DNA of 23,312 bases from a virus (taxonomy: Duplodnaviria > Heunggongvirae > Uroviricota > Caudoviricetes): the IMG/VR virus record IMGVR_UViG_2703718778_000014; one strand, 5' to 3'. A program made the position numbers and the translations under genes. The notes beneath the pieces were generated by a model, which was not told where the DNA came from, did no database searches, and saw only the letters and a program-made list of their open reading frames with translations. Below are positions 924-23,312 of the stretch, piece after piece (position 1 is the first letter of the stretch; each line of letters opens with the position of its first letter).

Positions 924-2912
924 TTATGATGAAGAGGTTGCCTGGTTAATGCTTACCATGATACTGCGGAACATGACAGGATAAGATTTTCCCTGATTTG
1001 CGCTGATACCTGTCACTGTGATGTTATCCACCGTAAAGGCAGAAGTGACCGGACCTTCTTTCAGTGCAAAACCTGTTTTCTCTTCTCCGTCAAGTACCGG
1101 AATAACCTGGTGATTGCCGCCTCCTTTATATTTAAAGACAAGCGTGTGCCAGTTGTTATTAACCGCACCGAATGACTCAATTTTTGTATTAGGCTGTGTT
1201 TTACCGTGATACATGACATCCAGGTTACTGGCTTTTGTCTGAGTGAAAAAGGAGGCCATCATATTGCTGCCGTTGCCTTCCTGAGTCCACCCGGAAACTG
1301 GCAGGTAAACACCAAAGAGGTATTTGTCATCTGCAACCTGGGTACCATCCGGCAACCTGAATTCAAGTTTTATTTCACCGCCATTTTCATACAGAGCACG
1401 GGCATCTTCAGCTGATACTCCTGCTGACAGCATCCACGGTCCCTGTTTGCCCTCATGCTGCTTAATCTTCAGCACCTGTCTGCTTTCATCATTAACAAAC
1501 TCGGCGACACCGTCCCGGGCATTCCAGTGCTGGGCTGCCCAGTTACCACCGAGGCTGTCTTTCTCAACAGCTGAATTATACTCAACAACCGTTCTTCTCT
1601 GAGGTGCATCCTGTGATAACGCAGCATCCTCCACAGGTGACGGGAAATTTCCGGATGTAACGTTTTCCCGTTCATCTCCTGCAACTACCGTTTCTGACCG
1701 CCCGGTGATAAACGCCGGGTATTTGCCTGCGTGGGTCAGAATTGCGGTTGCAAGACGATCTGAAATAATTCCACGCCGCGCCCATGAACCGAAATGGCTT
1801 GCCCTGTCACCTGACGTCCAGCTGACAGAACTGTCTCGCCACTTCGAACCGGAGTAGCCAATACCTTCAATATCAGGATCTTCTGCCGGATTATTGGTCT
1901 GCACATTTACCCCGCTTCCATCAACCATGAAAGGGACAAAGTGAATATTCTGCGCTGCCTTATTTTTATATCCACCGTATACAGTTTCATAAGACGCAGC
2001 ATATTTTTCTTTCCAGTAATGCGTCGTATCGCCACAAACCCACGGAACGCTCAGTGCCGAGCCCCCCACGCACTGCCCTGACATATCAGCGATGTCAGCA
2101 CGGAATTTCTGTACCATGCCAGTAAAAAGAGCATTATGACTCTGGCTTCCTGAAGCCAGATCACTCTCCCCCTGCATCCAGATTACCGCCAGCAGGATAT
2201 TTCCGGGATTTTTAGCCAGCGCGACTTTCGTGCGACTTAACAGATCCTGGTACAGCGGCTTATCAGCTCCCCACAATGCAGAATCAGGGCTTGCCCCGGA
2301 AGAGGCGTTAAATGTTCCCTCATTACCTGTAGTCACTCCCGAGCCTCCACGACAGCATGGAACCAGAAGAATGCCCGCATTCGCCGGTATAAACGGTAAC
2401 AGTTTTTTGGCAATATGCAGTCCCTGACCCACACAACCATACTGACCTTTATTGAGGTCTGCCCGGGGGTGATTTTTTTCACTCATATCCATCACATCAT
2501 GAAGACAATGATCTGCCGGAATAACATCGTTATAGGTGCAGGGAACGCCTCGCGGCGTAACGGTACGTCGACGGGCAAGCTGCTTAATTCTCGGATCAGG
2601 GCGATCATAAGAATCAGGTAACGGTACTCCCTCTCCAAAAGACATACCATTTGACTGACCCGCCAGCGCGACAACATAATAATATTCAGGCTCACCGGTC
2701 TTGCTGATAGCCGTCTCCCCGTCACCCGATGGTTTAACCAGCACCGGCGTGGTGACATCACCTTCCGCCGCAATAGCCTGCATCAGGGTATAAGGCGTGA
2801 TGGCGACAGGGCTGCCAAATGGCTGCCACCCCTCCTTCAGTTTTTGTGTCAGTCGTTCAGCAAGGTCTGACGGCGATGCCGCCCTGACCACATCGTAGTG
2901 TTTAAATGCCAT
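924..2912 (-). CDS. nanS: Phage sialate O-acetylesterase, NanS-p-like (SGNH/SASA hydrolase family), 662 aa
   Basis: ATG at 2912 with RBS GGGAGG; GQSN catalytic block (VVALAGQSNGMSFGEG) typical of sialic-acid-specific 9-O-acetylesterases; size and position between tRNAs and holin match the nanS-p genes of Stx-type prophages. Confidence 0.75.
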   Translation of the reverse strand: MAFKHYDVVRAASPSDLAERLTQKLKEGWQPFGSPVAITPYTLMQAIAAEGDVTTPVLVKPSGDGETAISKTGEPEYYYVVALAGQSNGMSFGEGVPLPDSYDRPDPRIKQLARRRTVTPRGVPCTYNDVIPADHCLHDVMDMSEKNHPRADLNKGQYGCVGQGLHIAKKLLPFIPANAGILLVPCCRGGSGVTTGNEGTFNASSGASPDSALWGADKPLYQDLLSRTKVALAKNPGNILLAVIWMQGESDLASGSQSHNALFTGMVQKFRADIADMSGQCVGGSALSVPWVCGDTTHYWKEKYAASYETVYGGYKNKAAQNIHFVPFMVDGSGVNVQTNNPAEDPDIEGIGYSGSKWRDSSVSWTSGDRASHFGSWARRGIISDRLATAILTHAGKYPAFITGRSETVVAGDERENVTSGNFPSPVEDAALSQDAPQRRTVVEYNSAVEKDSLGGNWAAQHWNARDGVAEFVNDESRQVLKIKQHEGKQGPWMLSAGVSAEDARALYENGGEIKLEFRLPDGTQVADDKYLFGVYLPVSGWTQEGNGSNMMASFFTQTKASNLDVMYHGKTQPNTKIESFGAVNNNWHTLVFKYKGGGNHQVIPVLDGEEKTGFALKEGPVTSAFTVDNITVTGISANQGKSYPVMFRSIMVSINQATSSS

Positions 2913-3104
2913 GAATCCTCCCGGCCGGAATAATGTTCTGAGTCAGAGAAGGCTCGGGCTGACCTCCGGAAACACAAAAGTCACACAAAACAGCCCGCAA
3001 AAAAGAAATACGCCCTTACATACAGTTGCGCAATGTGATTACTGTAAGGTATTATTAGGGCGCTGAATAAATTACTTCACGTTTTGTTATTTATTCCTTG
3101 CCAA

Positions 3105-3130
3105 CCGCTCTTCCCTGGAGCGGTTTTTTT
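3105..3130 (+). terminator. Hairpin plus T7 tract (plus-strand half of a bidirectional terminator at the edge of repeat unit A)
   Basis: ccgctc (3105-3110) / gagcgg (3118-3123) stem followed by ttttttt (3124-3130); paired with a second hairpin at 3142-3161 whose T-tract is on the minus strand. Confidence 0.4.
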
Positions 3131-3136
3131 GCATGT

Positions 3137-3304
3137 AAAAAGGCTCCTGCAATGAGGAGCCTGGATGTATGCCTAATCTCTGTATACTACATGGTGCCGG
3201 GTGCCTCCCGGTGAGTTCAGTATCAGCACCTGAACCCGCACAGAAAGGATAGAGTAGAAACACCTGCGCTGATATGCCCCTCCGCTCAGGGGGATTCACC
3301 ATGC
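3137..3304 (-). ncRNA. Candidate structured small RNA, repeat unit A (boundaries approximate)
   Basis: Conserved blocks shared with units B and C; variable 8-bp stem gagttcag (3213-3220) / ctgaaccc (3230-3237) fully paired only on the minus strand (G-U); minus-sense terminator hairpin 3142-3161 plus T-tract; no conserved ORF. Confidence 0.35.
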
Positions 3305-3398
3305 AGAACTTTTTTAACAACTCCCCGTCAGACAGGCAAGCATCAACCATCTGAACTGTGAGGGATTTAACATTTAACAACACAGCCTTTTCCCGCAC

Positions 3399-3563
3399 AA
3401 AAAAAGCCCCTCAGGAGAGGGGCCGATCGCTGTGTATACACCATAAGCAGCATAGTGCCGGGTGCCTCCCGGTAGATTCAGCCTGACTACTGAATCTGCG
3501 TATTGTGACCATCGCTATGGAGACCATGTCAGACGCCCCTCCGCACAGGGGGATTCACTATGC
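3399..3563 (-). ncRNA. Candidate structured small RNA, repeat unit B (boundaries approximate)
   Basis: Same conserved blocks; variable stem agattcag (3474-3481) / ctgaatct (3490-3497) with compensatory changes relative to A and C; strong minus-sense terminator gcccctcaggagaggggc (3406-3423) followed by TTTTTTT. Confidence 0.35.
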
Positions 3564-3779
3564 TGGCTCGTTTTTACAAGACTTCCATCAATCAGACAAT
3601 AGTCCATCAACCGAATTGTGAGTCATTTAACATTTCCATGAGGTAACTGATATCCAGCTAACAATCATCTGCAATGGACGAAGCCAGTTCCAGAACTTGC
3701 CCACACTACAGCAACAACCACTGCATTCCAAAAATGGAATTTTGGGAGATTACTTCTGCAAACAGCTACCGATAAATAT

Positions 3780-3916
3780 ATCCCTGATTGCCTGCGCAGT
3801 CTGTTCAAAACGCCCGGTATCCAGCTCAACGCCTATAGCACGACGCCCCAGCGCCATCGCTGCTTTAACTGCCGAACCCTACCCCATGAAGAAATCTGCA
3901 ACCAGGCCACCCGGCA
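3780..3916 (-). pseudogene. Relic copy of the 3' end of the DNA methyltransferase gene, with an in-frame stop
   Basis: Nucleotide-level match to 5316-5445 (C-terminal codons of the methyltransferase at 5290..6348); the Ser codon of the FFMGSGST motif (tcg) is TAG here (forward cta at 3879-3881); no start codon or N-terminal region present. Confidence 0.5.
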
Positions 3917-4033
3917 GAAGGGAGACTACAGCCCGCAATTCGAAAAAGGCCGCGCAGTTGCGCAGAGTGATTACTATGGGGTATTATTCGCCAGCTGAAA
4001 TATTACTTCACGTTTTATTGTTTATTCCTTGCC

Positions 4034-4061
4034 GCCCGCGTCTCCCAGCGCGGGCTTTTTT
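4034..4061 (+). terminator. Hairpin plus T6 tract (plus-strand half of a bidirectional terminator at the edge of repeat unit C)
   Basis: gcccgcg (4034-4040) / cgcgggc (4049-4055) followed by tttttt; second hairpin gcccctccagagaggggc at 4074-4091 serves the minus strand. Confidence 0.4.
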
Positions 4062-4065
4062 GTCC

Positions 4066-4245
4066 ATAAGAAAGCCCCTCCAGAGAGGGGCTGAAGCCGC
4101 ATTTCTGTATCACCATGAGCATGGTGCCGGGTGCCTCCCGGTGAGTTCAGCCCGGTGACACTAAACCCGCGTATTCTCGCTTACGATCATCAAAGAGATC
4201 ATACCGTTCACCAGTCGCCCCTCCGCACAGGGGGATTCACCATGC
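4066..4245 (-). ncRNA. Candidate structured small RNA, repeat unit C (boundaries approximate)
   Basis: Same conserved blocks; variable stem gagttcag (4143-4150) / ctaaaccc (4161-4168) has two mismatches on the plus strand that are G-U pairs on the minus strand; minus-sense terminator hairpin at 4074-4091. Confidence 0.35.
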
Positions 4246-4380
4246 GAAATTTTTTTAACAAATGCCCAGTCTGACAGGCAACTGTCAACTTACTGAATTG
4301 TGAGGAATTTAACACTTCACAGCACAATATCTTTCCAGCACCCCAAAATCATCTGGACAGGAGAAAATCTTCTCCCCCAG

Positions 4381-4809
4381 TCAGAGTTTAAAATCCAGCA
4401 CGCCATTTCTAAATGCTTTATATACTCCTGAAGACGGTGGTGATGGTATATCAGCATTCTTTACTGCATTCATCGCTTCACGACATAAATCGGGATCACC
4501 GCTTTCTCTTTTAACCTGTAGCAGAAGACCATTCGGGGCCATATACATTCTCAGTGAACACTCTTTTCCTGAATACTTACCCGCATCCTTTAACTGTTCT
4601 TCTATGGCTTCCCTGACCTGAATGGCATACTGCCGGATTTCTTCACTGGCATCAGGGGTACGTTCCGATAAGCTCAAATTTTGCGACTTTATTAATTTAT
4701 CTGAGTGATGCAGCGAAGCATCATAATTATTTGTCGATACATCTTTTGTGCAGCCAGTTGTCAGACTGGCTAATATCAAAACAAGAACCGGTACAGCACG
4801 GCAATACAT
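4381..4809 (-). CDS. Putative lipoprotein (142 aa), cargo gene in the stx-equivalent slot
   Basis: ATG at 4809 with RBS GGAGATGG; N-terminal signal peptide MYCRAVPVLVLILASLTTGC with a lipobox-like LTTGC; AT-rich upstream region suggests its own promoter. Family not recognised. Confidence 0.55.
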   Translation of the reverse strand: MYCRAVPVLVLILASLTTGCTKDVSTNNYDASLHHSDKLIKSQNLSLSERTPDASEEIRQYAIQVREAIEEQLKDAGKYSGKECSLRMYMAPNGLLLQVKRESGDPDLCREAMNAVKNADIPSPPSSGVYKAFRNGVLDFKL

Positions 4810-5087
4810 TTATCCATCTCCATATTAACAAGAACAATTATCTATAAAATATAGTAAATATGCGGGATCCGGGAGGACTTGTAACTATCATCTCCGGATC
4901 AGCATGTAGTTTTTATTTTTCCGGATGATATATGCCGCAATAATACCCCTGCATACAGATGCCTGCAAATATCTACGAAGCATCCGGCGAGAATAAACAA
5001 GGAAATCTGAGACTATCTTATATGATAGCCTGTTGCTCAAAAGACAATGATTCACTCATCAGAGCTAACAACGCATGATGCAGATAA

Positions 5088-5164
5088 TGGACCGCCATCG
5101 AGGACTCGAACCCCGCGCAGCCAGCTCCGAAGGCTGGCGCTCTATCCCGATGAGCTAATGGCGG
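5088..5164 (-). tRNA. tRNA-Arg, anticodon UCG (77 nt including CCA)
   Basis: Manual cloverleaf on the minus strand: acceptor CCGCCAT/ATGGCGG, D-arm GCTC...GAGC, anticodon stem CCAGC/GCTGG with loop CUUCGGA, T-arm CGGGG-TTCGAGT-CCTCG, 3' CCA. C1-G72 pair is unusual. Confidence 0.7.
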
Positions 5165-5173
5165 TATGTGATA

Positions 5174-5249
5174 TGGTGGCCCTTGCTGGATTTGAACCAG
5201 CGACCTGGCGATTATGAGTCGCTCGCTCTCACCACTGAGCTAAAGGGCC
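5174..5249 (-). tRNA. tRNA-Ile2 type with anticodon CAU (ileX/ileZ-like; tRNA-Met not formally excluded)
   Basis: Minus strand reads GGCCCTTTAGCTCAGTGGTGAGAGCGAGCGACTCATAATCGCCAGGTCGCTGGTTCAAATCCAGCAAGGGCCACCA; canonical arms, anticodon loop CUCAUAA; close to E. coli ileX as recalled. Confidence 0.8.
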
Positions 5250-5289
5250 GGGCGCAGGATAATAACGGTACGTAACTAATCCTGCAATA

Positions 5290-6348
5290 TCATCCGTTCT
5301 GGCTGGCTAAATCCTGAACTTCCCTGACCGTCTGCTCAAAACGTTCAGTCTCCAGCTCAACGCCTGTAGCACGACGCCCCAACACCATCGCTGCTTTGAC
5401 TGTCGAACCCGACCCCATGAAGAAATCTGCAACCAGGTCACCCGGACGACTGCTCGCACTGATTATCTGCTGCAGCATTTCTGCCGGTTTTTCGCACGGA
5501 TGTTTCCCGGGATAGTACTGCACCGGTTTATGCGTCCACACATCGGTGTACGGCACCCGCACCGTCACACCGAAATACCGCCGCAGATGCTTATATTCAC
5601 TCTGCAGTTCCGTATACTGCCGGTTCAGTTCACTGTATGTGCTGACCAGTTGGTGATGTGGCTTTTCCAGTTCTCCGCGCTGATGCTTCTCTTCTGCCAC
5701 CCGGGCAAACAGCGCCTGTAATTTCAGATAATCGCTTTCGTCCGGTAACTGCCACTGGCTGGCACTGAACCAGTGCGACACCATATTTTTCTTTCCTGTG
5801 GCATCCACTATCTGTTTTGCCGTTATCCCCAGGGCAGCACGCGCATCACGAAAGTAAGAAATCAGCGGGGCCATCACATGCTGTTTCAGTGCCCTGCCCT
5901 TCGCCTCATACCCGGCATCTTTCGGGCGATACGGCCCCTGATAATGTTCCGCGAACAGAATGCGCTCTGTGGCGGGGAAATACGCCCTCAGGCTTTCCTT
6001 GTTGCACCCGTTCCAGCGTCCGGACGGCTTTGCCCAGATAATATGGTTCAGCACACTGAAGTGTTCACGCATCATGATTTCGATATCAGATGCCAGGCGA
6101 TGGCCACAGAACAGGTAAAGACTTCCGGCAGGTTTCAGCACCCGCCAGAACTGCGCAAGACACTGGTCCAGCCACTTCAGGTAATCATCGTCGCCCTTCC
6201 ACTGGTTATCCCAGCCCTCAGGCTTCACTTTAAAGTACGGCGGGTCCGTGACTATCAGATCAACAGAATTTTCGGGTAACGACCGGATAAATTCCAGGCA
6301 GTCAGCGTTGATTAACTCACAACTGGATATTTTTACAGTGTTAAGCAT
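5290..6348 (-). CDS. DNA methyltransferase, N6-adenine/N4-cytosine family (DPPY motif), 352 aa
   Basis: ATG at 6348; motif IV DPPY near the N-terminus (LIVTDPPYF) and motif I FxGxG near the C-terminus (DFFMGSGST), i.e. beta-class order; position after Q and before tRNAs as in Stx-type phages. Confidence 0.8.
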   Translation of the reverse strand: MLNTVKISSCELINADCLEFIRSLPENSVDLIVTDPPYFKVKPEGWDNQWKGDDDYLKWLDQCLAQFWRVLKPAGSLYLFCGHRLASDIEIMMREHFSVLNHIIWAKPSGRWNGCNKESLRAYFPATERILFAEHYQGPYRPKDAGYEAKGRALKQHVMAPLISYFRDARAALGITAKQIVDATGKKNMVSHWFSASQWQLPDESDYLKLQALFARVAEEKHQRGELEKPHHQLVSTYSELNRQYTELQSEYKHLRRYFGVTVRVPYTDVWTHKPVQYYPGKHPCEKPAEMLQQIISASSRPGDLVADFFMGSGSTVKAAMVLGRRATGVELETERFEQTVREVQDLASQNG

Positions 6349-6486
6349 GGATCATTAAGCCTGTCTCTGATAGGCTCATTCTGCTTTTGCGCAAAGCAGT
6401 GGGCCTGAGGTTTGCTTGTGATCCTGACGCATGAGCAGATGGCTGGTGAGTGCCCCTAACACCCACCAGCCGCCCATTTACCACAA

Positions 6487-6512
6487 ATAAAAAAGCCTTC
6501 AGGACTGAAGGC
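6487..6512 (-). terminator. Intrinsic terminator (minus strand), third of a stack
   Basis: Stem gccttcag (6495-6502) / tgaaggc (6506-6512); minus-sense transcript is followed by TTTTTTATTT. Confidence 0.4.
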
Positions 6513-6546
6513 GTCTGTAACAACCGAACTGATAGTCTGCCAGCCC

Positions 6547-6569
6547 AAAAAAAACCCGCCAGTGGCGGG
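6547..6569 (-). terminator. Intrinsic terminator (minus strand), second of a stack
   Basis: Stem cccgcc (6555-6560) / ggcggg (6564-6569) preceded on the plus strand by A8 (6547-6554), i.e. T8 after the hairpin on the minus strand. Confidence 0.45.
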
Positions 6570-6773
6570 GATCTTTTGATAAAAACGACAAAGGCACCAT
6601 TAAGGTGCCTTTTACACAGGGCAGCAGGCTTGTCATCACCTTATTGCTACTCCTGGCTTCCAGTTCGGAAGTCTCACAAGTCCCATCAGGGTACAGCGAC
6701 AGTATCAGTCAACACTCTATGATTCTGCTGAACAGGCAGTTTCGCACTGTACATTATAACCTGTTAAGCCAAC

Positions 6774-6849: not shown

Positions 6850-6878
6850 AATATATGCTCTTCAGTTCTATTTTGCAA
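6850..6878 (-). promoter_or_regulatory. Candidate late promoter pR' just after the Q gene
   Basis: On the minus strand: -35 TTGCAA (6878-6873), 17-nt spacer, -10 TATATT (6855-6850); about 60-75 nt upstream of the tR'-like terminator, as in the lambda pR'-tR' arrangement. Confidence 0.3.
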
Positions 6879-7551
6879 GATATGGTTCTAAATTAATCGA
6901 CTTTTGCCGTGAACGTACCCGCATTACTGAAATAAGAGCATCCCTGTCCAGCATCTCTGCACTACCCCGCATAGCCAACCAGTGAGGCCTGTGTGTTTTT
7001 GTCCATGTAGATTTAGCAACTCCTATGAACACCGCTAACTCCTGATGTTCATAGGTCTCACGCCCTGCCAGCTCACTCTTCACATCCTGTGCCGCCAGCC
7101 AAATCAGTTTCTTCAGACGATCCAGCGTTTTCCCTGCAATTTTTCTGGTACCAGCCTGAGCTTTAAACTCACCCCATACCCATTGTGTTATAGTGACCTG
7201 ATCTTCCCAGCAAACATTTCCACTGTAGCACCACAGTAACCACGCCTTCTGATGTTCTTCCAGTTCCAGAACGGCACGCCGCCACGATGATGTTGCAAAC
7301 TCAACCGGACTGACCAGCGCAATTGATGAGCCTTTCGCCAGTGATTGTTTACCCGGGATCGGTTGATTATCCCGCGTGATCATTTTTCCGGTTACCTCAT
7401 CGCGATAACGAATTTTTTTGCGTCTGTAACACCCTGTATCGAACAGGGCATTCTCCTGCCAGGCTTCCAGCTGGCCTTTTGTCGCCCCACTGAGATCCGC
7501 AGTGGCAATCATGAGTTGCTCACGAACAAACTGTAAATACTGGTTATTCAT
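6868..7551 (-). CDS. Late antiterminator Q-like protein (QuuQ/YdfT-like family by position and size)
   Basis: ATG at 7551 overlaps the rusA stop (ATGA); sits between rusA and the pR'/terminator region as Q does in lambdoid phages. Family assignment is from gene order and recalled Qin-prophage context, not a motif match. Confidence 0.5.
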   Translation of the reverse strand: MNNQYLQFVREQLMIATADLSGATKGQLEAWQENALFDTGCYRRKKIRYRDEVTGKMITRDNQPIPGKQSLAKGSSIALVSPVEFATSSWRRAVLELEEHQKAWLLWCYSGNVCWEDQVTITQWVWGEFKAQAGTRKIAGKTLDRLKKLIWLAAQDVKSELAGRETYEHQELAVFIGVAKSTWTKTHRPHWLAMRGSAEMLDRDALISVMRVRSRQKSINLEPYLAK

Positions 7552-7907
7552 GCGCACTCCAGTTCTGTGATTTTTATCCCCAGCCGCCCGCCAGGAACAG
7601 GCAGGCCACGCACAATATTGATTTCATCAAACTGCTCATCGTCCATTAACAACCCCGCATGCGTAAGCGCATCCAGCGGCGCTTTCAGAATATTGTCCAG
7701 GTCACGGCGGCGCTTATCCGGTGGCTCTGCAATAATCCTGATTACCAGCCTTCCGGACAGGCTTAATTTCAGCCGCTGCTGGTTAACAATAAGCGCCACA
7801 GCACGGCGATAGCGCTTTCCCTCCTCCGAGATAAAATATGTGCTGCCACGACGACGCCAGTAGGTGTTCACCGTTGGCGGGTAAGGTAAAACCAAATCTA
7901 TGAGCAT
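7548..7907 (-). CDS. rusA: Holliday junction resolvase RusA (119 aa)
   Basis: ATG at 7907 with RBS GAGGTG; conserved RusA blocks PPTVNTYW, DKRRRDLDN and GGRLGIKITE. Confidence 0.8.
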   Translation of the reverse strand: MLIDLVLPYPPTVNTYWRRRGSTYFISEEGKRYRRAVALIVNQQRLKLSLSGRLVIRIIAEPPDKRRRDLDNILKAPLDALTHAGLLMDDEQFDEINIVRGLPVPGGRLGIKITELECA

Positions 7908-9415: not shown

Positions 9416-10642
9416 ATGTCAGGAACCATAACAAAAATCAGCACAGGGGAAAATGTTCTGTCAGCAGCAATCCATCGCATTGAATGGTTGTTCGAAACGT
9501 TTAATGAGGTCTGCTTGTCTTTTTCTGGTGGCAAAGACTCTACTGTGCTTTTCCATCTTGTGGCAGAAGTCGCCAGTAGAAAAAAACGTCGTTTTTCGGT
9601 TTTATTCATTGACTGGGAAGCCCAATATCAGTGCACGATTAATCATATCCAAAAGATGAGGGAAATGTACCGGCATGTGACAGACAATTTTTACTGGGTA
9701 GCGCTTCCTCTGACTACGGTAAATGGCGTCTCTCAGTTTCAGCCAGAATGGATATGTTGGGAGCCAGGTGTAGAATGGGTTCGTCAGCCACCAGATGACG
9801 CTATTACAGATATGTCGTATTTCCCATTTTATCGGTATGCCATGACGTTTGAAGAATTTGTTCCGGCATTTTCTTCCTGGTTTGCCGGTAACCGATGTGG
9901 AGTGGGAATACTAACTGGTGTTCGTGCTGATGAATCGCTCAATCGCTTTATGGGACTGGTGTCTCAGCGCAAACTGAGATATGCAGATGATAAACCCTGG
10001 AGCACCGCTTCACCCGATGGTTTTTACTACACCATGTATCCATTGTATGACTGGAAAACAAATGATATATGGACGTATAACTCAAGAACCCGCGCCATCT
10101 ACAATCCCCTGTACGACCTAATGTACCGTGCCGGAGTGTCGTTACGCAACATGCGTGTTTGTGAGCCCTTTGGCCCGGAACAGCGTAAGGGGCTGTGGCT
10201 TTACCATGTTCTGGAGCCGGAAACCTGGGCCAGGATGTGTGAGCGAGTGTCAGGGGCTGCCAGTGGCGCTCTTTATGCCAATGAAAGCGGTGCCTATTTT
10301 GCTCTGCGTAAACGAATCACAAAACCGGCTCATCATACCTGGCGCAGCTACGCAATGTTCATGCTGGATGTTATGCCAGAAAGAACAGCAGAACATTACC
10401 GTAACAAAATTGCAGTCTACCTGCGCTGGTATCAGACGCGGGGCTTCCCGGATGATATCCCGGATGAACAGGAGAATGACCTGGGGAGCCGGGATATCCC
10501 GTCCTGGCGACGTATCTGTAAGACGCTCATAAAGAATGACTTCTGGTGCCGGACCCTCTCCTTCAGTCCGAACAAACCCCGGCACTATGAGCGTTATCTG
10601 CAACGAATGAAGGAAAGGAGGAAAGAATGGGGGATTCTGTGA
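9416..10642 (+). CDS. ibrA: PAPS-reductase-like PP-loop ATP pyrophosphatase (IbrA-like, DndC-like fold), 408 aa
   Basis: PP-loop motif SFSGGKDS near the N-terminus; 3' end overlaps the next gene by 16 nt. Confidence 0.65.
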   Translation: MSGTITKISTGENVLSAAIHRIEWLFETFNEVCLSFSGGKDSTVLFHLVAEVASRKKRRFSVLFIDWEAQYQCTINHIQKMREMYRHVTDNFYWVALPLTTVNGVSQFQPEWICWEPGVEWVRQPPDDAITDMSYFPFYRYAMTFEEFVPAFSSWFAGNRCGVGILTGVRADESLNRFMGLVSQRKLRYADDKPWSTASPDGFYYTMYPLYDWKTNDIWTYNSRTRAIYNPLYDLMYRAGVSLRNMRVCEPFGPEQRKGLWLYHVLEPETWARMCERVSGAASGALYANESGAYFALRKRITKPAHHTWRSYAMFMLDVMPERTAEHYRNKIAVYLRWYQTRGFPDDIPDEQENDLGSRDIPSWRRICKTLIKNDFWCRTLSFSPNKPRHYERYLQRMKERRKEWGIL

Positions 10643-11271
10643 CGCCTGAGATGGATGTACTAAGCAACATGATTCGTCAGTACTTCAGTCGGGAACAGCC
10701 CGAAGAAGAGTCCATACGAGCCCTTAACCATCTGCGCAGGGTACTGCATGAAGTCAGTCCTTTTGCACAGGAGCCTGTAGACTGTGTGCTGTGGGTGAAA
10801 GCGGATGAGGTGGTAGCCAACGATTATAACCCCAATGTCATGGCACCAAGTGAGAAGAAACTGCTGAAGCAGTCACTGGAAAAAGATGGTTTCACACAAC
10901 CGGTGGTGGTGTCAGAGGAGAAGAATCATTATCTGGTGGTGGATGGTTTTCATCGTCAGTTATTGGGCAGAGAATCAGTTACAGGAAAACGTCTGAGGGG
11001 CTGGCTGCCTGTAGCCTGTATTAATCCAGAGAGAAAAGGGCAAGCCGCACGCATTGCCGCAACCATTCGACATAACCGGGCTAGGGGGAAACACCAGATA
11101 GACTCAGTGTCTGATATTGTAAGAGATCTTTCACGCTTGGGATGGGCAGATGAACGCATTGGCACTGAGTTGGGTATGGATCAGGATGAAGTACTGAGAC
11201 TTAAACAAATTAGCGGGCTAACTGAGTTATTTCAGGAAGTGGATTTCAGCCCGGCATGGACAGTTAAATAG
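10627..11271 (+). CDS. ibrB: ParB N-terminal-domain (ParB/sulfiredoxin-like nuclease) protein (IbrB-like), 214 aa
   Basis: Strong RBS AAGGAGG; ParB-box-like HYLVVDGFHR and basic TIRHNRARG block; translationally coupled to the upstream gene. Confidence 0.65.
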   Translation: MGDSVTPEMDVLSNMIRQYFSREQPEEESIRALNHLRRVLHEVSPFAQEPVDCVLWVKADEVVANDYNPNVMAPSEKKLLKQSLEKDGFTQPVVVSEEKNHYLVVDGFHRQLLGRESVTGKRLRGWLPVACINPERKGQAARIAATIRHNRARGKHQIDSVSDIVRDLSRLGWADERIGTELGMDQDEVLRLKQISGLTELFQEVDFSPAWTVK

Positions 11272-19419: not shown

Positions 19420-21891
19420 ATGAATAAAATCTTTATTTGCGCTGCTATTCCTGACGAACAGGCCATAGAAGAAGATAGCGCTGTTGCGGTGGCCACTGCC
19501 ATTGAAGCCGGTGATGAGCGTCGCGCACGCGCAAAATTTCACTGGCAATTTCTGGAGCAATTCCCGGCAGCTCAGGACTGCGCTTATAAATTTATTGTCT
19601 GCGAGGATAAACCCAGTATACCCCGCCCTGCCCTCGATTCCTGGGATACCGAATATATGCAGGAAAACCGCTGGGATGAGGAGTCTGCGTCCTTTGTCCC
19701 GGTCGAACCCGAATCCGATCCGATGAACGTCACTTTTGACAATCTGGCCCCTGAAGTACAGAACGCCGTCATGGTTAAGTTCGACGCATGTGAAAACATC
19801 ACTGTTGATATGGTGATTAGCGCTCAGGAATTGTTGCAGGAAGACATGGCAACATTCGACGGCCATATCGTTGAAGCGTTGATGAAGATGCCAGAAGTTA
19901 ACGCCATGTATCCGGAGCTTAAGCTGCATGCCATCGGGTGGGTTAAGCATAAATGTAAACCTGCTGCTAAATGGCCCGAAATTCAGGCAGAGATGCGCAT
20001 CTGGAAAAAACGTCGCGAAAGTGAACGCAAGGAAACCGGGAAATACATATCTGTCGTTGATATCGCCCGTTCCAGAGTAAACCAACAGAACACTGAAAAC
20101 GCTGCTGAAAAAACCGGGGCTGTCACTGTTGCCGTTCGCCGCGAATACAAACAGACATGGAAAACACTCGACAATGAACTGGCCTGCGCCCTCTGGCCCG
20201 GTGATGTGGATGCAGGAAACATTGACGGTACCATCCATCGCTGGGCGACAAATGAGGTTATCGACAAGGATCGCGAAGACTGGAAGCGTATCTCAGCATC
20301 AATGCGCAAACAGCCCGAAGCACTTGCCTATGACCGTCAGACTATTTTTGGCCTTGTTCGCGAACGTCCGATCGATATTCACAAAGATCCCGTTGCACTG
20401 AACAAATATATCAGCGAATACCTGACGACAAAGGGCGTGTTTGAACATGAAGAAACAGACCAGAGCTCTGCTGATGCTCTCCAGTCACCAGCAGCACAAA
20501 CTGCTCCAGTGGAGACGGCAGAATCCGATACTCAAAAAAATGAAATCCTGGTGGAAGCTGAACCATCTGTAGAGCGTGAAGGACCATTTTATTTCGTCTT
20601 TACCGATAAGGGCGGGGAAAAATACGGCAGGGCAAACAAACTTTCTGGTCTGGACAGGGCGCTGGCTGCCGGCGGTACCGAAATCTCAAAAGAAGAATAT
20701 TTTGCCCGAAAAAATGGCACATACACGGGCTTACCGCAAAATGTGGATAGCACTGAAGATTCCGAACAACCAGAGCCGGTAAAAGTTACCGCTGACGAAG
20801 TAAACAAAATTATGCAGGCAGCCAATATCAGCCAGCCTGACGCCGATAAATTGCTTGCTGCATCACGTGGTGAATTTGTTGAAGGGATTAGCGACCCGGA
20901 TGATCCGAAATGGGTGAAAGGGATCCAGAGTCGCGACGCTGAGGACCAGAATCAGCCCAACGTGAAACAAAATGAGCCAGAAGCGGAACAAAACAGCCCG
21001 GATACGCAACAAAACGGGCCAGAAGAACAACAACCAGAACCAGCAGTGCAACAGGAACTGGAAAAAGTTTGCACCGCATGCGGTCAGACCGGTGGCGGCA
21101 ACTGTCCTGACTGTGGTGCGGTGATGGGGAACGCAACCTACCAGGAAACATTCGATGAAGAAAATCAGGCTGAAGCTCAGGAAAATGATCCGGAGGAAAT
21201 GGAAGGCACTGAACATCTGCACAAGGAGAACACTGTCAGCGATCAGTATCACGCCAGCGATAATAAAACTGGCGAAACAGCAAATCCCTTAATTAAAGTG
21301 AACGGTCATCATGAAACCACATCCACCAGCAGGTTGTGGCACCATCTGATGATTGACCTTGAAACAATGGGAAAAAATCCTGATGCGCCAATAAACGCTA
21401 TAGCCGGTAAGTTTTTTGATCCGGCAACCGGAGAGATGGGGCCAGAATTCAGCAAAACTATCGATCTGGAAACCGCAGGCGGGGTCATCGATCGGGACAC
21501 CATTAAGTGGTGGCTGAAACAGTCACGCGAAGCACAATCCGCCATTCTGACCGATGAAATCCCGTTGGATGATGCACTGCTGCAATTCCGGGAATTTATC
21601 GACGAAAACTCCGGTGAATTTTTTGTTCAGGTCTGGGGTAACGGTGCAACTTTCGACAACGTGATTTTACGCCGTTCATATGAACGGCAGGGGATCCCCT
21701 GCCCGTGGCGTTACACCAATGATCGCGATGTAAGAACGATGGTTGCTCTGGGACTGGTGATGGATTTCGACGCAAGAACGACTATTCCATTCGAAGGTGA
21801 ACGCCATAACGCGCTGCACGATGCGCGTTACCAAGCAAAATACGTTTCAGCCATCTGGCAAAAACTGATCCCGAGTCAGGCTGATTTTTAA
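19420..21891 (+). CDS. Large phage protein with C-terminal DEDDh (DnaQ-like) 3'-5' exonuclease domain, 823 aa
   Basis: RBS GAGGT; C-terminal motifs MIDLET (Exo I), WGNGATFD (Exo II), HNALHDARY (Exo III, DEDDh type); acidic low-complexity middle region with a CxxC-x7-CxxC zinc-ribbon-like motif (KVCTACGQTGGGNCPDCG). Confidence 0.65.
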   Translation: MNKIFICAAIPDEQAIEEDSAVAVATAIEAGDERRARAKFHWQFLEQFPAAQDCAYKFIVCEDKPSIPRPALDSWDTEYMQENRWDEESASFVPVEPESDPMNVTFDNLAPEVQNAVMVKFDACENITVDMVISAQELLQEDMATFDGHIVEALMKMPEVNAMYPELKLHAIGWVKHKCKPAAKWPEIQAEMRIWKKRRESERKETGKYISVVDIARSRVNQQNTENAAEKTGAVTVAVRREYKQTWKTLDNELACALWPGDVDAGNIDGTIHRWATNEVIDKDREDWKRISASMRKQPEALAYDRQTIFGLVRERPIDIHKDPVALNKYISEYLTTKGVFEHEETDQSSADALQSPAAQTAPVETAESDTQKNEILVEAEPSVEREGPFYFVFTDKGGEKYGRANKLSGLDRALAAGGTEISKEEYFARKNGTYTGLPQNVDSTEDSEQPEPVKVTADEVNKIMQAANISQPDADKLLAASRGEFVEGISDPDDPKWVKGIQSRDAEDQNQPNVKQNEPEAEQNSPDTQQNGPEEQQPEPAVQQELEKVCTACGQTGGGNCPDCGAVMGNATYQETFDEENQAEAQENDPEEMEGTEHLHKENTVSDQYHASDNKTGETANPLIKVNGHHETTSTSRLWHHLMIDLETMGKNPDAPINAIAGKFFDPATGEMGPEFSKTIDLETAGGVIDRDTIKWWLKQSREAQSAILTDEIPLDDALLQFREFIDENSGEFFVQVWGNGATFDNVILRRSYERQGIPCPWRYTNDRDVRTMVALGLVMDFDARTTIPFEGERHNALHDARYQAKYVSAIWQKLIPSQADF

Positions 21892-21955: not shown

Positions 21956-22204
21956 ATGGCAAGACTTATTCTTCTCACTGAGTGGGCAAAAGAGGAATTC
22001 AGTGACCCGGTCCCGACTCCGGGCACGTTAAGTAAATACGCTAAAGCCGGAATGATATTTCCTCTCCCCAAAAAAGTTGGAAGACACTGGCGAGTGGATC
22101 CTCGAGCTCGCTTTGTCGGAATGGTAAACAAGCCGGAAGTGATCGCCACAGATCACCCTGCTTTGAAGAGGATACTGGAAGATGGCGCGCCCACGAAAAT
22201 ATAA
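21956..22204 (+). CDS. xis: Excisionase (Xis-like)
   Basis: 82-aa ORF immediately upstream of and overlapping int by 23 nt; MIFPLPKKVGRHWRV resembles the lambda Xis core (IFPPPVKDGREYL). Confidence 0.5.
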   Translation: MARLILLTEWAKEEFSDPVPTPGTLSKYAKAGMIFPLPKKVGRHWRVDPRARFVGMVNKPEVIATDHPALKRILEDGAPTKI

Positions 22205-23312
22205 AACTGAAGTTCCGGGATTATCTCCGTATTTTGACAAAAGAAATAACAAAGTTTACTGGCGTTACAGGCATCCCATAACAGGAAAAAATCACGGACT
22301 CGGCAGTATTGACCAGAAACAGGCAGAAGCTATTGCAGCAGAAGCGAACAGCCGTCTTGCCAGGCAACAAATGGAACAAATGCTCAGTCTGCAGGAGAAA
22401 ATTATTAGTGATACCGGTAGTCCATCAACCGTTTCTGCTTTTCTGAATAGTTACCGAAAAATTCAACAGGAAAGATATGAAAACGGAGAGATCAAACTCA
22501 ACACACTGAAACAGAAAGCATCCCCTCTCAGAGTATTTGATGAACGTTTTGGTACCAGACCATTAGATGCCATAACCGTAAAAGATGTGGTATCGGTGCT
22601 GGAAGATTACAAGGCAAAAGGACATAACAGAATGGGACAAATTTTCAGGAAAGTACTGATCGATGTTTTCCGGGAGGCCCAGCAAACGGGCGATGTCCCG
22701 CTAGGCTTTAACCCTGCAGAATCGGCAAAAAAACCACAGGTACGGATATCACGGCAACGACTGACCTTTGATGAGTGGATGATGATTTATAATGCAGCGG
22801 AAAAGGATGGTTACTTTTTACAGCGTGGTATGCTGCTGGCACTGATGACAGGCCAGCGCCTTTCAGATATTTGCAAAATGAAATTTTCGGATATCAGGGA
22901 TGGTTATCTTCATGTCGAACAGCAAAAAACAGGAACCCGGATTGCCATCCCTCTGGCTCTGCGTTACGATAAATTAAATCTCACCCTGGATGATGTGGTG
23001 TCATCCTGTCGCGATTGCGTTCTTAGTCCGTGGCTATTGCACCACCATCATGCTAAAGGGACAGCTAAGCGCGGCGGGATGGTTAAGCCAGCAACGTTAA
23101 CCGTTGCATTTAAAAAAGCCCGGGATTCTGTGGATTACAACTGGCGTGCTAATGGCACCCCACCCTCTTTCCATGAGCAGAGATCTTTATCAGAACGATT
23201 GTTCAGAGAACAGGGAATTGATACCAAAATTTTGCTGGGCCATTCGAATCAAAAAATGACCGATATTTACAACGACGCACGCGGTAAGGAATGGAAAAAA
23301 CTGGTCATTTGA
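22182..23312 (+). CDS. int: Tyrosine integrase, lambda Int family
   Basis: RBS GAGGA; collinear similarity to lambda Int recalled in several blocks (GQRLSDICKMKFSDIRDGYLHVEQQKTG..., PPSFHEQRSLSERLF, LLGHSNQKMTDIYNDARGKEWKKL); stop at 23310-23312, so the att site should lie just beyond the right edge. Confidence 0.85.
   Translation: MARPRKYKTEVPGLSPYFDKRNNKVYWRYRHPITGKNHGLGSIDQKQAEAIAAEANSRLARQQMEQMLSLQEKIISDTGSPSTVSAFLNSYRKIQQERYENGEIKLNTLKQKASPLRVFDERFGTRPLDAITVKDVVSVLEDYKAKGHNRMGQIFRKVLIDVFREAQQTGDVPLGFNPAESAKKPQVRISRQRLTFDEWMMIYNAAEKDGYFLQRGMLLALMTGQRLSDICKMKFSDIRDGYLHVEQQKTGTRIAIPLALRYDKLNLTLDDVVSSCRDCVLSPWLLHHHHAKGTAKRGGMVKPATLTVAFKKARDSVDYNWRANGTPPSFHEQRSLSERLFREQGIDTKILLGHSNQKMTDIYNDARGKEWKKLVI

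Follow-up and report, generated by a model that had tools for sequence, protein, structure and literature searches.

Introduction

Lambdoid phages are mosaics, and the concept of gene-fragment scars at their novel joints, in the moron region downstream of Q and pR', is cited in PMC4104026 after Juhala et al., 2000. The same paper reports convergent sRNA pairs between a moron coding sequence and a conserved downstream ORF, in which an EcOnc27/STnc100-type sRNA is transcribed from the late strand and an anti-sRNA, AsxR or AgvB, from the opposite strand (Tree et al., 2014; PMC4104026). STnc100 itself is known just downstream of stx2 in Stx2 phages (PMC12370729) and is related to PasD (bioRxiv 10.64898/2026.05.13.724894). 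Stx phages and lambdoid prophages also carry DNA methyltransferases of the Pfam family PF01555 between Q and the tRNA genes.

Here we analyze a 23,312-nt stretch of viral DNA (Caudoviricetes; IMG/VR record IMGVR_UViG_2703718778_000014), referred to throughout as the window. An initial annotation had described at positions 3780-3916 a relic duplicate of the methyltransferase 3' end with an in-frame stop, and had attributed it, together with duplicated terminator blocks, to duplication or illegitimate recombination of late-region segments. The relic is an ordinary pseudogene; features of this kind are well known, and this instance is already annotated in RefSeq. It is homologous to the C-terminal 54 residues of the phage methyltransferases, including the AdoMet-binding FxGxG region, and differs from functional PF01555 enzymes in having no start codon, no DPPY motif and a stop inside motif I. 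In our assessment it is very probably a non-functional scar, left when the late regions of two related lambdoid phages recombined illegitimately and out of register. It shares with the mosaic scars known from lambdoid phages its abrupt homology boundaries, a joint with 2 nt of microhomology, a truncated gene between exchangeable modules, and a site in the cargo region between pR' and the lysis genes. Nothing essential sets it apart from those scars; in this case both single-module parents can be identified and a second deletion can be resolved.

Results

Layout of the late region

Over the part compared, the window does not differ from Escherichia coli S19-651 (NZ_CP075852.1). The region is the late region of a lambdoid prophage, transcribed from the minus strand (Table 1). 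In the order of late transcription, Q is followed by a small ORF, the resident methyltransferase gene, tRNA-Ile(CAT)/tRNA-Arg(TCG), a TolA-like gene, the sRNA STnc100 C and a block that we call block 2. Then come the relic, STnc100 B, STnc100 A, block 1 and the esterase gene, with holin and lysozyme genes beyond. Positional comparison with an Stx2d phage shows that the 142-aa TolA-like gene occupies the slot that stx2AB and a third tRNA fill in Stx2 phages; the segments on either side of it (window 3913-4303 and 5062-5500) are 93-95% identical to the Stx2d phage. The N-terminus of the TolA-like protein is lipoprotein-like (LTTGC), and the protein could act as a decoy for TolA-dependent colicins or phages.

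Two other loci of the window are of separate interest. Among the minus-strand phage genes, positions 9416-11271 hold two plus-strand genes. One product, of 408 aa, is a PAPS-reductase/DUF3440 protein, and the other, of 214 aa, matches ParB_N weakly; the pair may resemble IbrA/IbrB. Close to the integrase end of the prophage (integrase at 22182-23312), the product of a gene at 19420-21891 (+), 823 aa in length, has an Rv2179c-like 3'-5' exoribonuclease domain (PF16473, E = 7e-62) at its C-terminus.

Table 1. Features of the window around the relic, in the order of late transcription
Feature	Position	Strand	Basis or remark
Q	6868-7557	-	
Resident DNA methyltransferase, intact, 352 aa	5290-6348	-	Pfam PF01555, E = 1e-42; PGAP
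tRNA-Arg(TCG) and CAT-anticodon tRNA (tRNA-Ile per PGAP), module 1	5088-5249	-	
TolA C-terminal-domain protein, 142 aa, module 1 cargo	4381-4809	-	Pfam PF06519, E = 3e-22
STnc100 C, module 1	4062-4274	-	Rfam RF02076, 172 bits
Spurious 153-aa ORF, antisense across relic, joint, block 2 and 3' end of STnc100 C	3697-4158	+	
Block 2, normally just upstream of the esterase gene; sRNA-like unit	3915-4061	+	
Novel joint 1, 2-nt microhomology (CC, minus strand)	3913-3914		Esterase-upstream sequence of parent 1 / codon 302 of parent 2 methyltransferase
Methyltransferase pseudogene (relic)	3750-3914	-	PF01555 allele, last 54 codons; lacks start codon and N-terminal 301 codons
In-frame TAG for TCG (Ser), motif I FFMG-S-GS	3879-3881	-	Relic versus resident translations
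3' flank of parental methyltransferase, 23 nt	3727-3749	-	Collinear with SMBL and JNE131328 past the stop codon
Novel joint 2, 2-nt microhomology (AT)	3725-3726		1,279-bp deletion relative to JNE131328-type arrangement
STnc100 B, module 2	3397-3592	-	Rfam RF02076, 121 bits
STnc100 A, module 2	3131-3332	-	Rfam RF02076, 164 bits
Block 1, paralogue of block 2 in the normal place upstream of the esterase	3018-3134	+	
NanS-p-type sialate O-acetyl esterase, 662 aa, conserved gene downstream of the moron site	924-2912	-	Pfam SASA, DUF1737, DUF6645; PGAP

A methyltransferase pseudogene between two sRNA genes

Window positions 3799-3914 align without gaps to the 3' end of the resident methyltransferase gene (5330-5445) with 90% identity over 116 nt. 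The minus-strand translation of the relic reads LPGGLVADFFMG, an internal stop, then GSAVKAAMALGRRAIGVELDTGRFEQTAQAIRDIFIGSCLQK and a terminal stop; the resident gene reads RPGDLVADFFMGSGSTVKAAMVLGRRATGVELETERFEQTVREVQDLASQNG before its stop codon. The internal stop is the replacement of the Ser codon of the FFMGSGST motif by TAG that the initial annotation had pointed out, and the relic does lie between units B and C, both of which are STnc100 sRNAs. The methyltransferase-derived stretch is slightly longer than first noted: from 3914 it runs down to a TAA of its own at 3750-3752 and then continues through 23 nt of 3' flank to 3727.

With the internal stop read as Ser, the relic scores 40.5 bits (E = 4e-10) against the Pfam N6_N4_Mtase profile (PF01555) and covers only positions 181-219 of 221, while the resident gene covers positions 1-219; the relic does not amount to a whole domain. 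It retains 54 of 355 codons, about 15% of the gene. DPPY (catalytic motif IV), which in the SMBL protein discussed below occupies residues 34-37, is missing from the relic, which begins at codon 302, and motif I (FxGxG) is broken as F-M-G-TAG-G. No start codon is present upstream of the TAG within the homologous stretch. In NZ_CP075852.1 PGAP labels the interval a pseudogene, 'DNA methyltransferase; internal stop; incomplete; missing N-terminus', and a pseudogene call by PGAP was found in every relic carrier inspected. The best phage match of the relic is the methylase of phiP27, with 80% amino-acid identity.

The ORF at 3697-4158(+) is an artefact, as the initial annotation held. It crosses both novel joints and two terminators, and its start lies beyond joint 2; it has no Pfam match and no PGAP annotation, and in the closest relatives its counterpart is only 117 aa long with other ends, as in JNE131328.

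Joint 1: the relic meets block 2

We mapped joint 1 by a three-way comparison of the window, the Stx2d phage and the resident methyltransferase gene. In the direction of late transcription, the window and the Stx2d phage have identical sequences as far as ...GTAGTCTCCCTTCTGCC. Past this point the Stx2d phage reaches the ATG of the esterase 71 nt later, and the window goes on as GGGTGGCCTGGTTGCAGATTTC..., which is methyltransferase sequence; at the corresponding point the resident gene reads ...GTCGTCC/GGGTGACCTGG. Joint 1 therefore comprises 2 nt of microhomology, and homology to both parents ends at the same nucleotide. In strain G1/2, too, the esterase start codon follows 71 nt after the sequence adjoining the joint.

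The joint is spanned in 88 of 5,426 complete E. coli genomes, with identities of 94.9-100%, and another 449 complete genomes match only from 3913 onward and thus hold the unrearranged block. The BLAST boundary at 3913/3914 is sharp, with hundreds of genomes and 70 phage records matching only to the right of 3913; in Stx2 phages this right-hand segment sits between stx2B/STnc100 and the esterase gene. An identical joint was present in all six relic-bearing genomes and all ten IMG/VR contigs examined. The TAG is likewise common to the six aligned genomes and the ten contigs (intact alleles have TCG), and this shared pair of characters points to a single origin of the relic-bearing prophages.

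Joint 2: loss of an AraC-type gene

The second joint lies on the other side of the relic. The two JNE131328 flanks read ...ACTGCAT/ACACAT... and ...AGTATAT/TCCAAAA..., and the window reads ...ACTGCAT/TCCAAAA.... The 1,279 bp missing from the window contain a gene for a 241-aa AraC-type protein (Pfam HTH_18/HTH_AraC). In the JNE131328-type arrangement, found in about 80 genomes, the relic stands immediately upstream of this gene; the deleted arrangement of the window occurs in nine complete genomes and in two of the ten IMG/VR contigs.

The AraC-type gene is located at 4237-4962 of the compared JNE131328 stretch and is absent at window 3726/3727. Phage phiSTEC1575-Stx2k has a homologue that is 59% identical (6001-6714 of the compared stretch) between Q and the tRNAs, in the slot that the methyltransferase fills in other Stx phages.

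The parental allele and the parental architectures

Initial database searches returned no intact gene with a tail of the relic type. We then used a chimeric query that combined the relic-type 3' end with methyltransferase sequence from upstream of the breakpoint, and exactly one complete genome, E. coli SMBL, matched over its full length. The SMBL methyltransferase is intact (355 aa), has TCG at the Ser codon, ends in ...GVELDTGRFEQTAQEIRDVFSGSGLQK and has the same 3' flank as the relic. It is directly followed by the AraC-type HTH gene, two STnc100 copies and the esterase gene, with neither tRNAs nor a TolA-like gene at the locus. JNE131328 3261-5190 and SMBL 4321-6251 are 98.2% identical, from the sRNA array up to exactly joint 1, and the exact SMBL protein is encoded on 60 public contigs.

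Over 188 nt, tail and flank included, the JNE131328-type relic differs from the SMBL allele at 6 positions (96.8% identity) and the relic of the window at 15 (92% identity). The tail and 3' flank cannot be aligned to the resident gene, and in the JNE131328-type relic they are identical to SMBL. Judged by these alignments, the relic does not derive from the neighboring gene but is what remains of a second, different allele that another phage would have introduced. The other unrearranged architecture (Q, methyltransferase, tRNAs, TolA-like gene, one STnc100, block, esterase) is found in 35 genomes. Among them is G1/2; this strain and JNE131328 encode identical TolA-like proteins. Comparison with related prophages has thus recovered both single-module arrangements outside the recombinant, one in SMBL and the other in G1/2 and 34 further genomes.

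Whether SMBL itself descends from the second parent is a separate matter. All six differences between the JNE131328-type relic and SMBL fall within 54 nt of joint 1 (window 3860-3914), and the next 134 nt are identical. Three of the six occur in both relics and in neither of the two intact alleles compared; at these sites, and again at a variable codon next to the joint, SMBL resembles ordinary resident alleles. SMBL may therefore not be a direct descendant of parent 2, and could be a later homologous recombinant between a resident methyltransferase gene and the relic, with loss of module 1. Alternatively, the 54-nt cluster may possibly consist of substitutions that accumulated close to joint 1. 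As a query, the 5' part of the SMBL gene matched a great number of alleles at 98.3-98.5% identity, both in prophages that bear the relic and in others. Under either reading of SMBL, a parent of SMBL architecture must have existed to account for the tail of the relic and for its place next to the AraC-type gene. In exact-pattern scans, relic-type sequence with either TCG or TAG was absent from GTDB species representatives, and IMG/VR yielded relics with TAG only and no intact allele with the relic-specific substitutions.

Terminator blocks and convergent sRNAs

The duplicated terminator blocks of the initial annotation are homologous, as pairwise alignment confirms: 3023-3067 and 3955-3999 are 80% identical, 3071-3160 and 4002-4091 are 73% identical, and the mean column identity is 82%. 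At 73-80% identity the two blocks are not recent copies of each other; each came in with the module to which it belongs. Block 2 shares 98.6% identity with the blocks of Stx2 phages, where it adjoins the esterase gene yjhS.

The term terminator is too narrow for these blocks, which make up the convergent-sRNA junction of the lambdoid moron site. Facing them on the minus strand, units A, B and C all score above the RF02076 gathering score of 47, and the minus-strand STnc100 terminators fall within the blocks at 3162-3141 and 4092-4073. On the plus strand, block 2 has a predicted promoter (-35 TTGCGC at 3958-3963, an 18-nt spacer and -10 TATTAT at 3982-3987), from which a putative transcript would run to a terminator at 4034-4055 followed by a T run. 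The corresponding elements of block 1 are at 3026-3031 (-35), 3050-3055 (-10) and 3103-3125 (terminator). A nearly invariant stretch of about 32 nt, ATTACTTCACGTTTTRTTRTTTATTCCTTGCC, precedes each plus-strand terminator and is itself preceded by TTGCGC-N18-TATTAT. The GC-rich terminator stems of the two paralogues differ in sequence yet are fully paired. RNAalifold gave no useful consensus for four plus-strand block variants, in which the two terminator stems were out of register in the MAFFT alignment, and our terminator calls rest on a scan of each sequence separately.

In position these units correspond to AsxR and AgvB, being convergent with STnc100, placed between the cargo gene and the esterase gene and antisense to late transcription from pR'. 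The -35 TTGCGC and 18-nt spacer are as in G1/2, where the position of the plus-strand unit (3747-3799 of the compared stretch) is occupied by an Rfam match to AsxR (63 bits) on the same strand and behind TTGCGC. Unlike members of the AsxR and AgvB families, however, the plus-strand unit of the window has a transcribed body that matches neither Rfam model: searches of window 2900-4400 with the AsxR (RF02703) and AgvB (RF02702) covariance models, which capture a conserved 3' region of about 42 nt, returned no match at E <= 1. A full-text search of the literature found no text match for the block sRNA sequence. The plus-strand unit may be an unnamed sRNA variant. A bolder reading, which we hold only tentatively and think rather unlikely as a whole, is that the block units are an undescribed third type of sRNA body at the AsxR/AgvB locus and that the repeats formed by relic and resident gene may permit cassette loss. 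The third-type sRNA may then extend over about 3993-4061 and 3061-3131, with ATTACTTCACGTTTTRTTRTTTATTCCTTGCC as its own seed and terminator stems that are fully compensated between the paralogues. Homologous recombination between the direct repeats made by the relic and the resident 3' end may remove the tRNA-TolA-sRNA cassette, and the SMBL allele may be such a product.

The number of STnc100 copies varies among the prophages compared: two plus one in the window, four plus one in JNE131328 (2600-3579 and 5339-5551 of the compared stretch), two in SMBL (4191-4640), and one each in G1/2 (3804-4013) and the Stx2d phage. This variation suggests unequal homologous recombination within the tandem sRNA arrays.

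Function of the relic and duplication within one prophage

We considered whether the relic might have been kept for a function, as promoter or 5' leader of the AraC-type gene, as source of a short C-terminal peptide, or as a homology patch through which the tRNA-TolA-sRNA cassette is lost or gained by recombination with the resident gene. It does stand immediately upstream of the AraC-type gene in about 80 genomes, as the intact gene does in SMBL; it forms direct repeats with the resident gene around module 1; and the SMBL pattern is what a crossover between resident gene and relic would be expected to give. However, the relic persists in the window although the downstream AraC-type gene has been deleted, no promoter-like site was found in it on either strand, and a peptide would have to do without a start codon upstream of the TAG. 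The window copy has moreover acquired 10 further substitutions relative to the JNE131328-type copy, some of them non-synonymous. Between the two arrangement types the relic has diverged by 5.3% and its surroundings by 3.0%, a difference that is not significant (Fisher p = 0.08); the adjacent STnc100, TolA-like and tRNA genes, at 0.6-1.4%, have diverged less than the relic. We infer that the relic has no function, and regard retention for one of these roles as very improbable.

Slightly less probable still is a tandem duplication within a single prophage, of a segment reaching from the methyltransferase 3' end to the terminator block, with later divergence of the two copies. Such an event would account for the direct repeat of the methyltransferase 3' end (116 nt, 90% identity, spacing 1,531 nt) and for that of the blocks. 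A tandem duplicate should resemble the adjacent gene most closely, but the tail and 3' flank of the relic fail to align with that gene and, in JNE131328-type prophages, equal the SMBL allele. Block 2 is far closer to the blocks of Stx2 phages than to block 1, the two modules carry different cargo, and both single-module architectures are found separately. The earlier proposal of 'duplication or illegitimate recombination' thus stands as regards illegitimate recombination of late-region segments; 'duplicate' was inexact, the allele being a different one of the SMBL type, and the terminator blocks, though rightly paired, are not recent copies of each other.

Finally, chance similarity or low-complexity sequence is excluded: the match between relic and resident gene was found by blastn (E = 7e-40) and again by megablast with the low-complexity filter on, and is therefore neither chance nor simple sequence, and its frame is conserved with a PF01555 match at E = 4e-10.

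Discussion

We reconstruct the history of this locus as two illegitimate crossings. Two lambdoid phage genomes would first have recombined in the cargo ('moron') region downstream of Q and pR'. Parent 1 would have had the order Q, methyltransferase, tRNA-Ile/Arg, TolA-like gene, STnc100, block and esterase, as in G1/2, an architecture that also occurs in Stx2 phages with stx2AB in place of the TolA-like gene. Parent 2 would have had the SMBL order of Q, its own methyltransferase allele, AraC-type gene, STnc100 array, block and esterase. A crossover with 2 nt of microhomology would have connected parent 1, at a point 71 nt before the start codon of its esterase gene, to codon 302 of the parent 2 methyltransferase gene. 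The recombinant would carry both cargo modules in tandem, with the second methyltransferase reduced to its last 54 codons between them. A single novel joint suffices for this, because everything upstream of it corresponds to parent 1 and everything downstream to parent 2, and one crossover of the two parents would yield a prophage of the JNE131328 type.

The TAG in the AdoMet-binding FxGxG would have been acquired at once or soon after the crossover. A further illegitimate event in the lineage that led to the window, again with 2 nt of microhomology, would then have removed 1,279 bp including the AraC-type gene, and would have left the relic directly upstream of STnc100 B.

The relic matters little in itself. 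Its value is that of a marker, which dates and delimits one out-of-register illegitimate crossover. By our reconstruction, this crossover stacked tRNAs, a TolA-like gene and an sRNA pair onto an AraC-type regulator and an STnc100 array. About 1.6% of complete E. coli genomes, a good many of which are STEC, now carry the prophage lineage that bears the relic, and the relic is a convenient PCR or sequence marker of this lineage. The locus illustrates clearly how Stx-like prophages gain morons and sRNAs.
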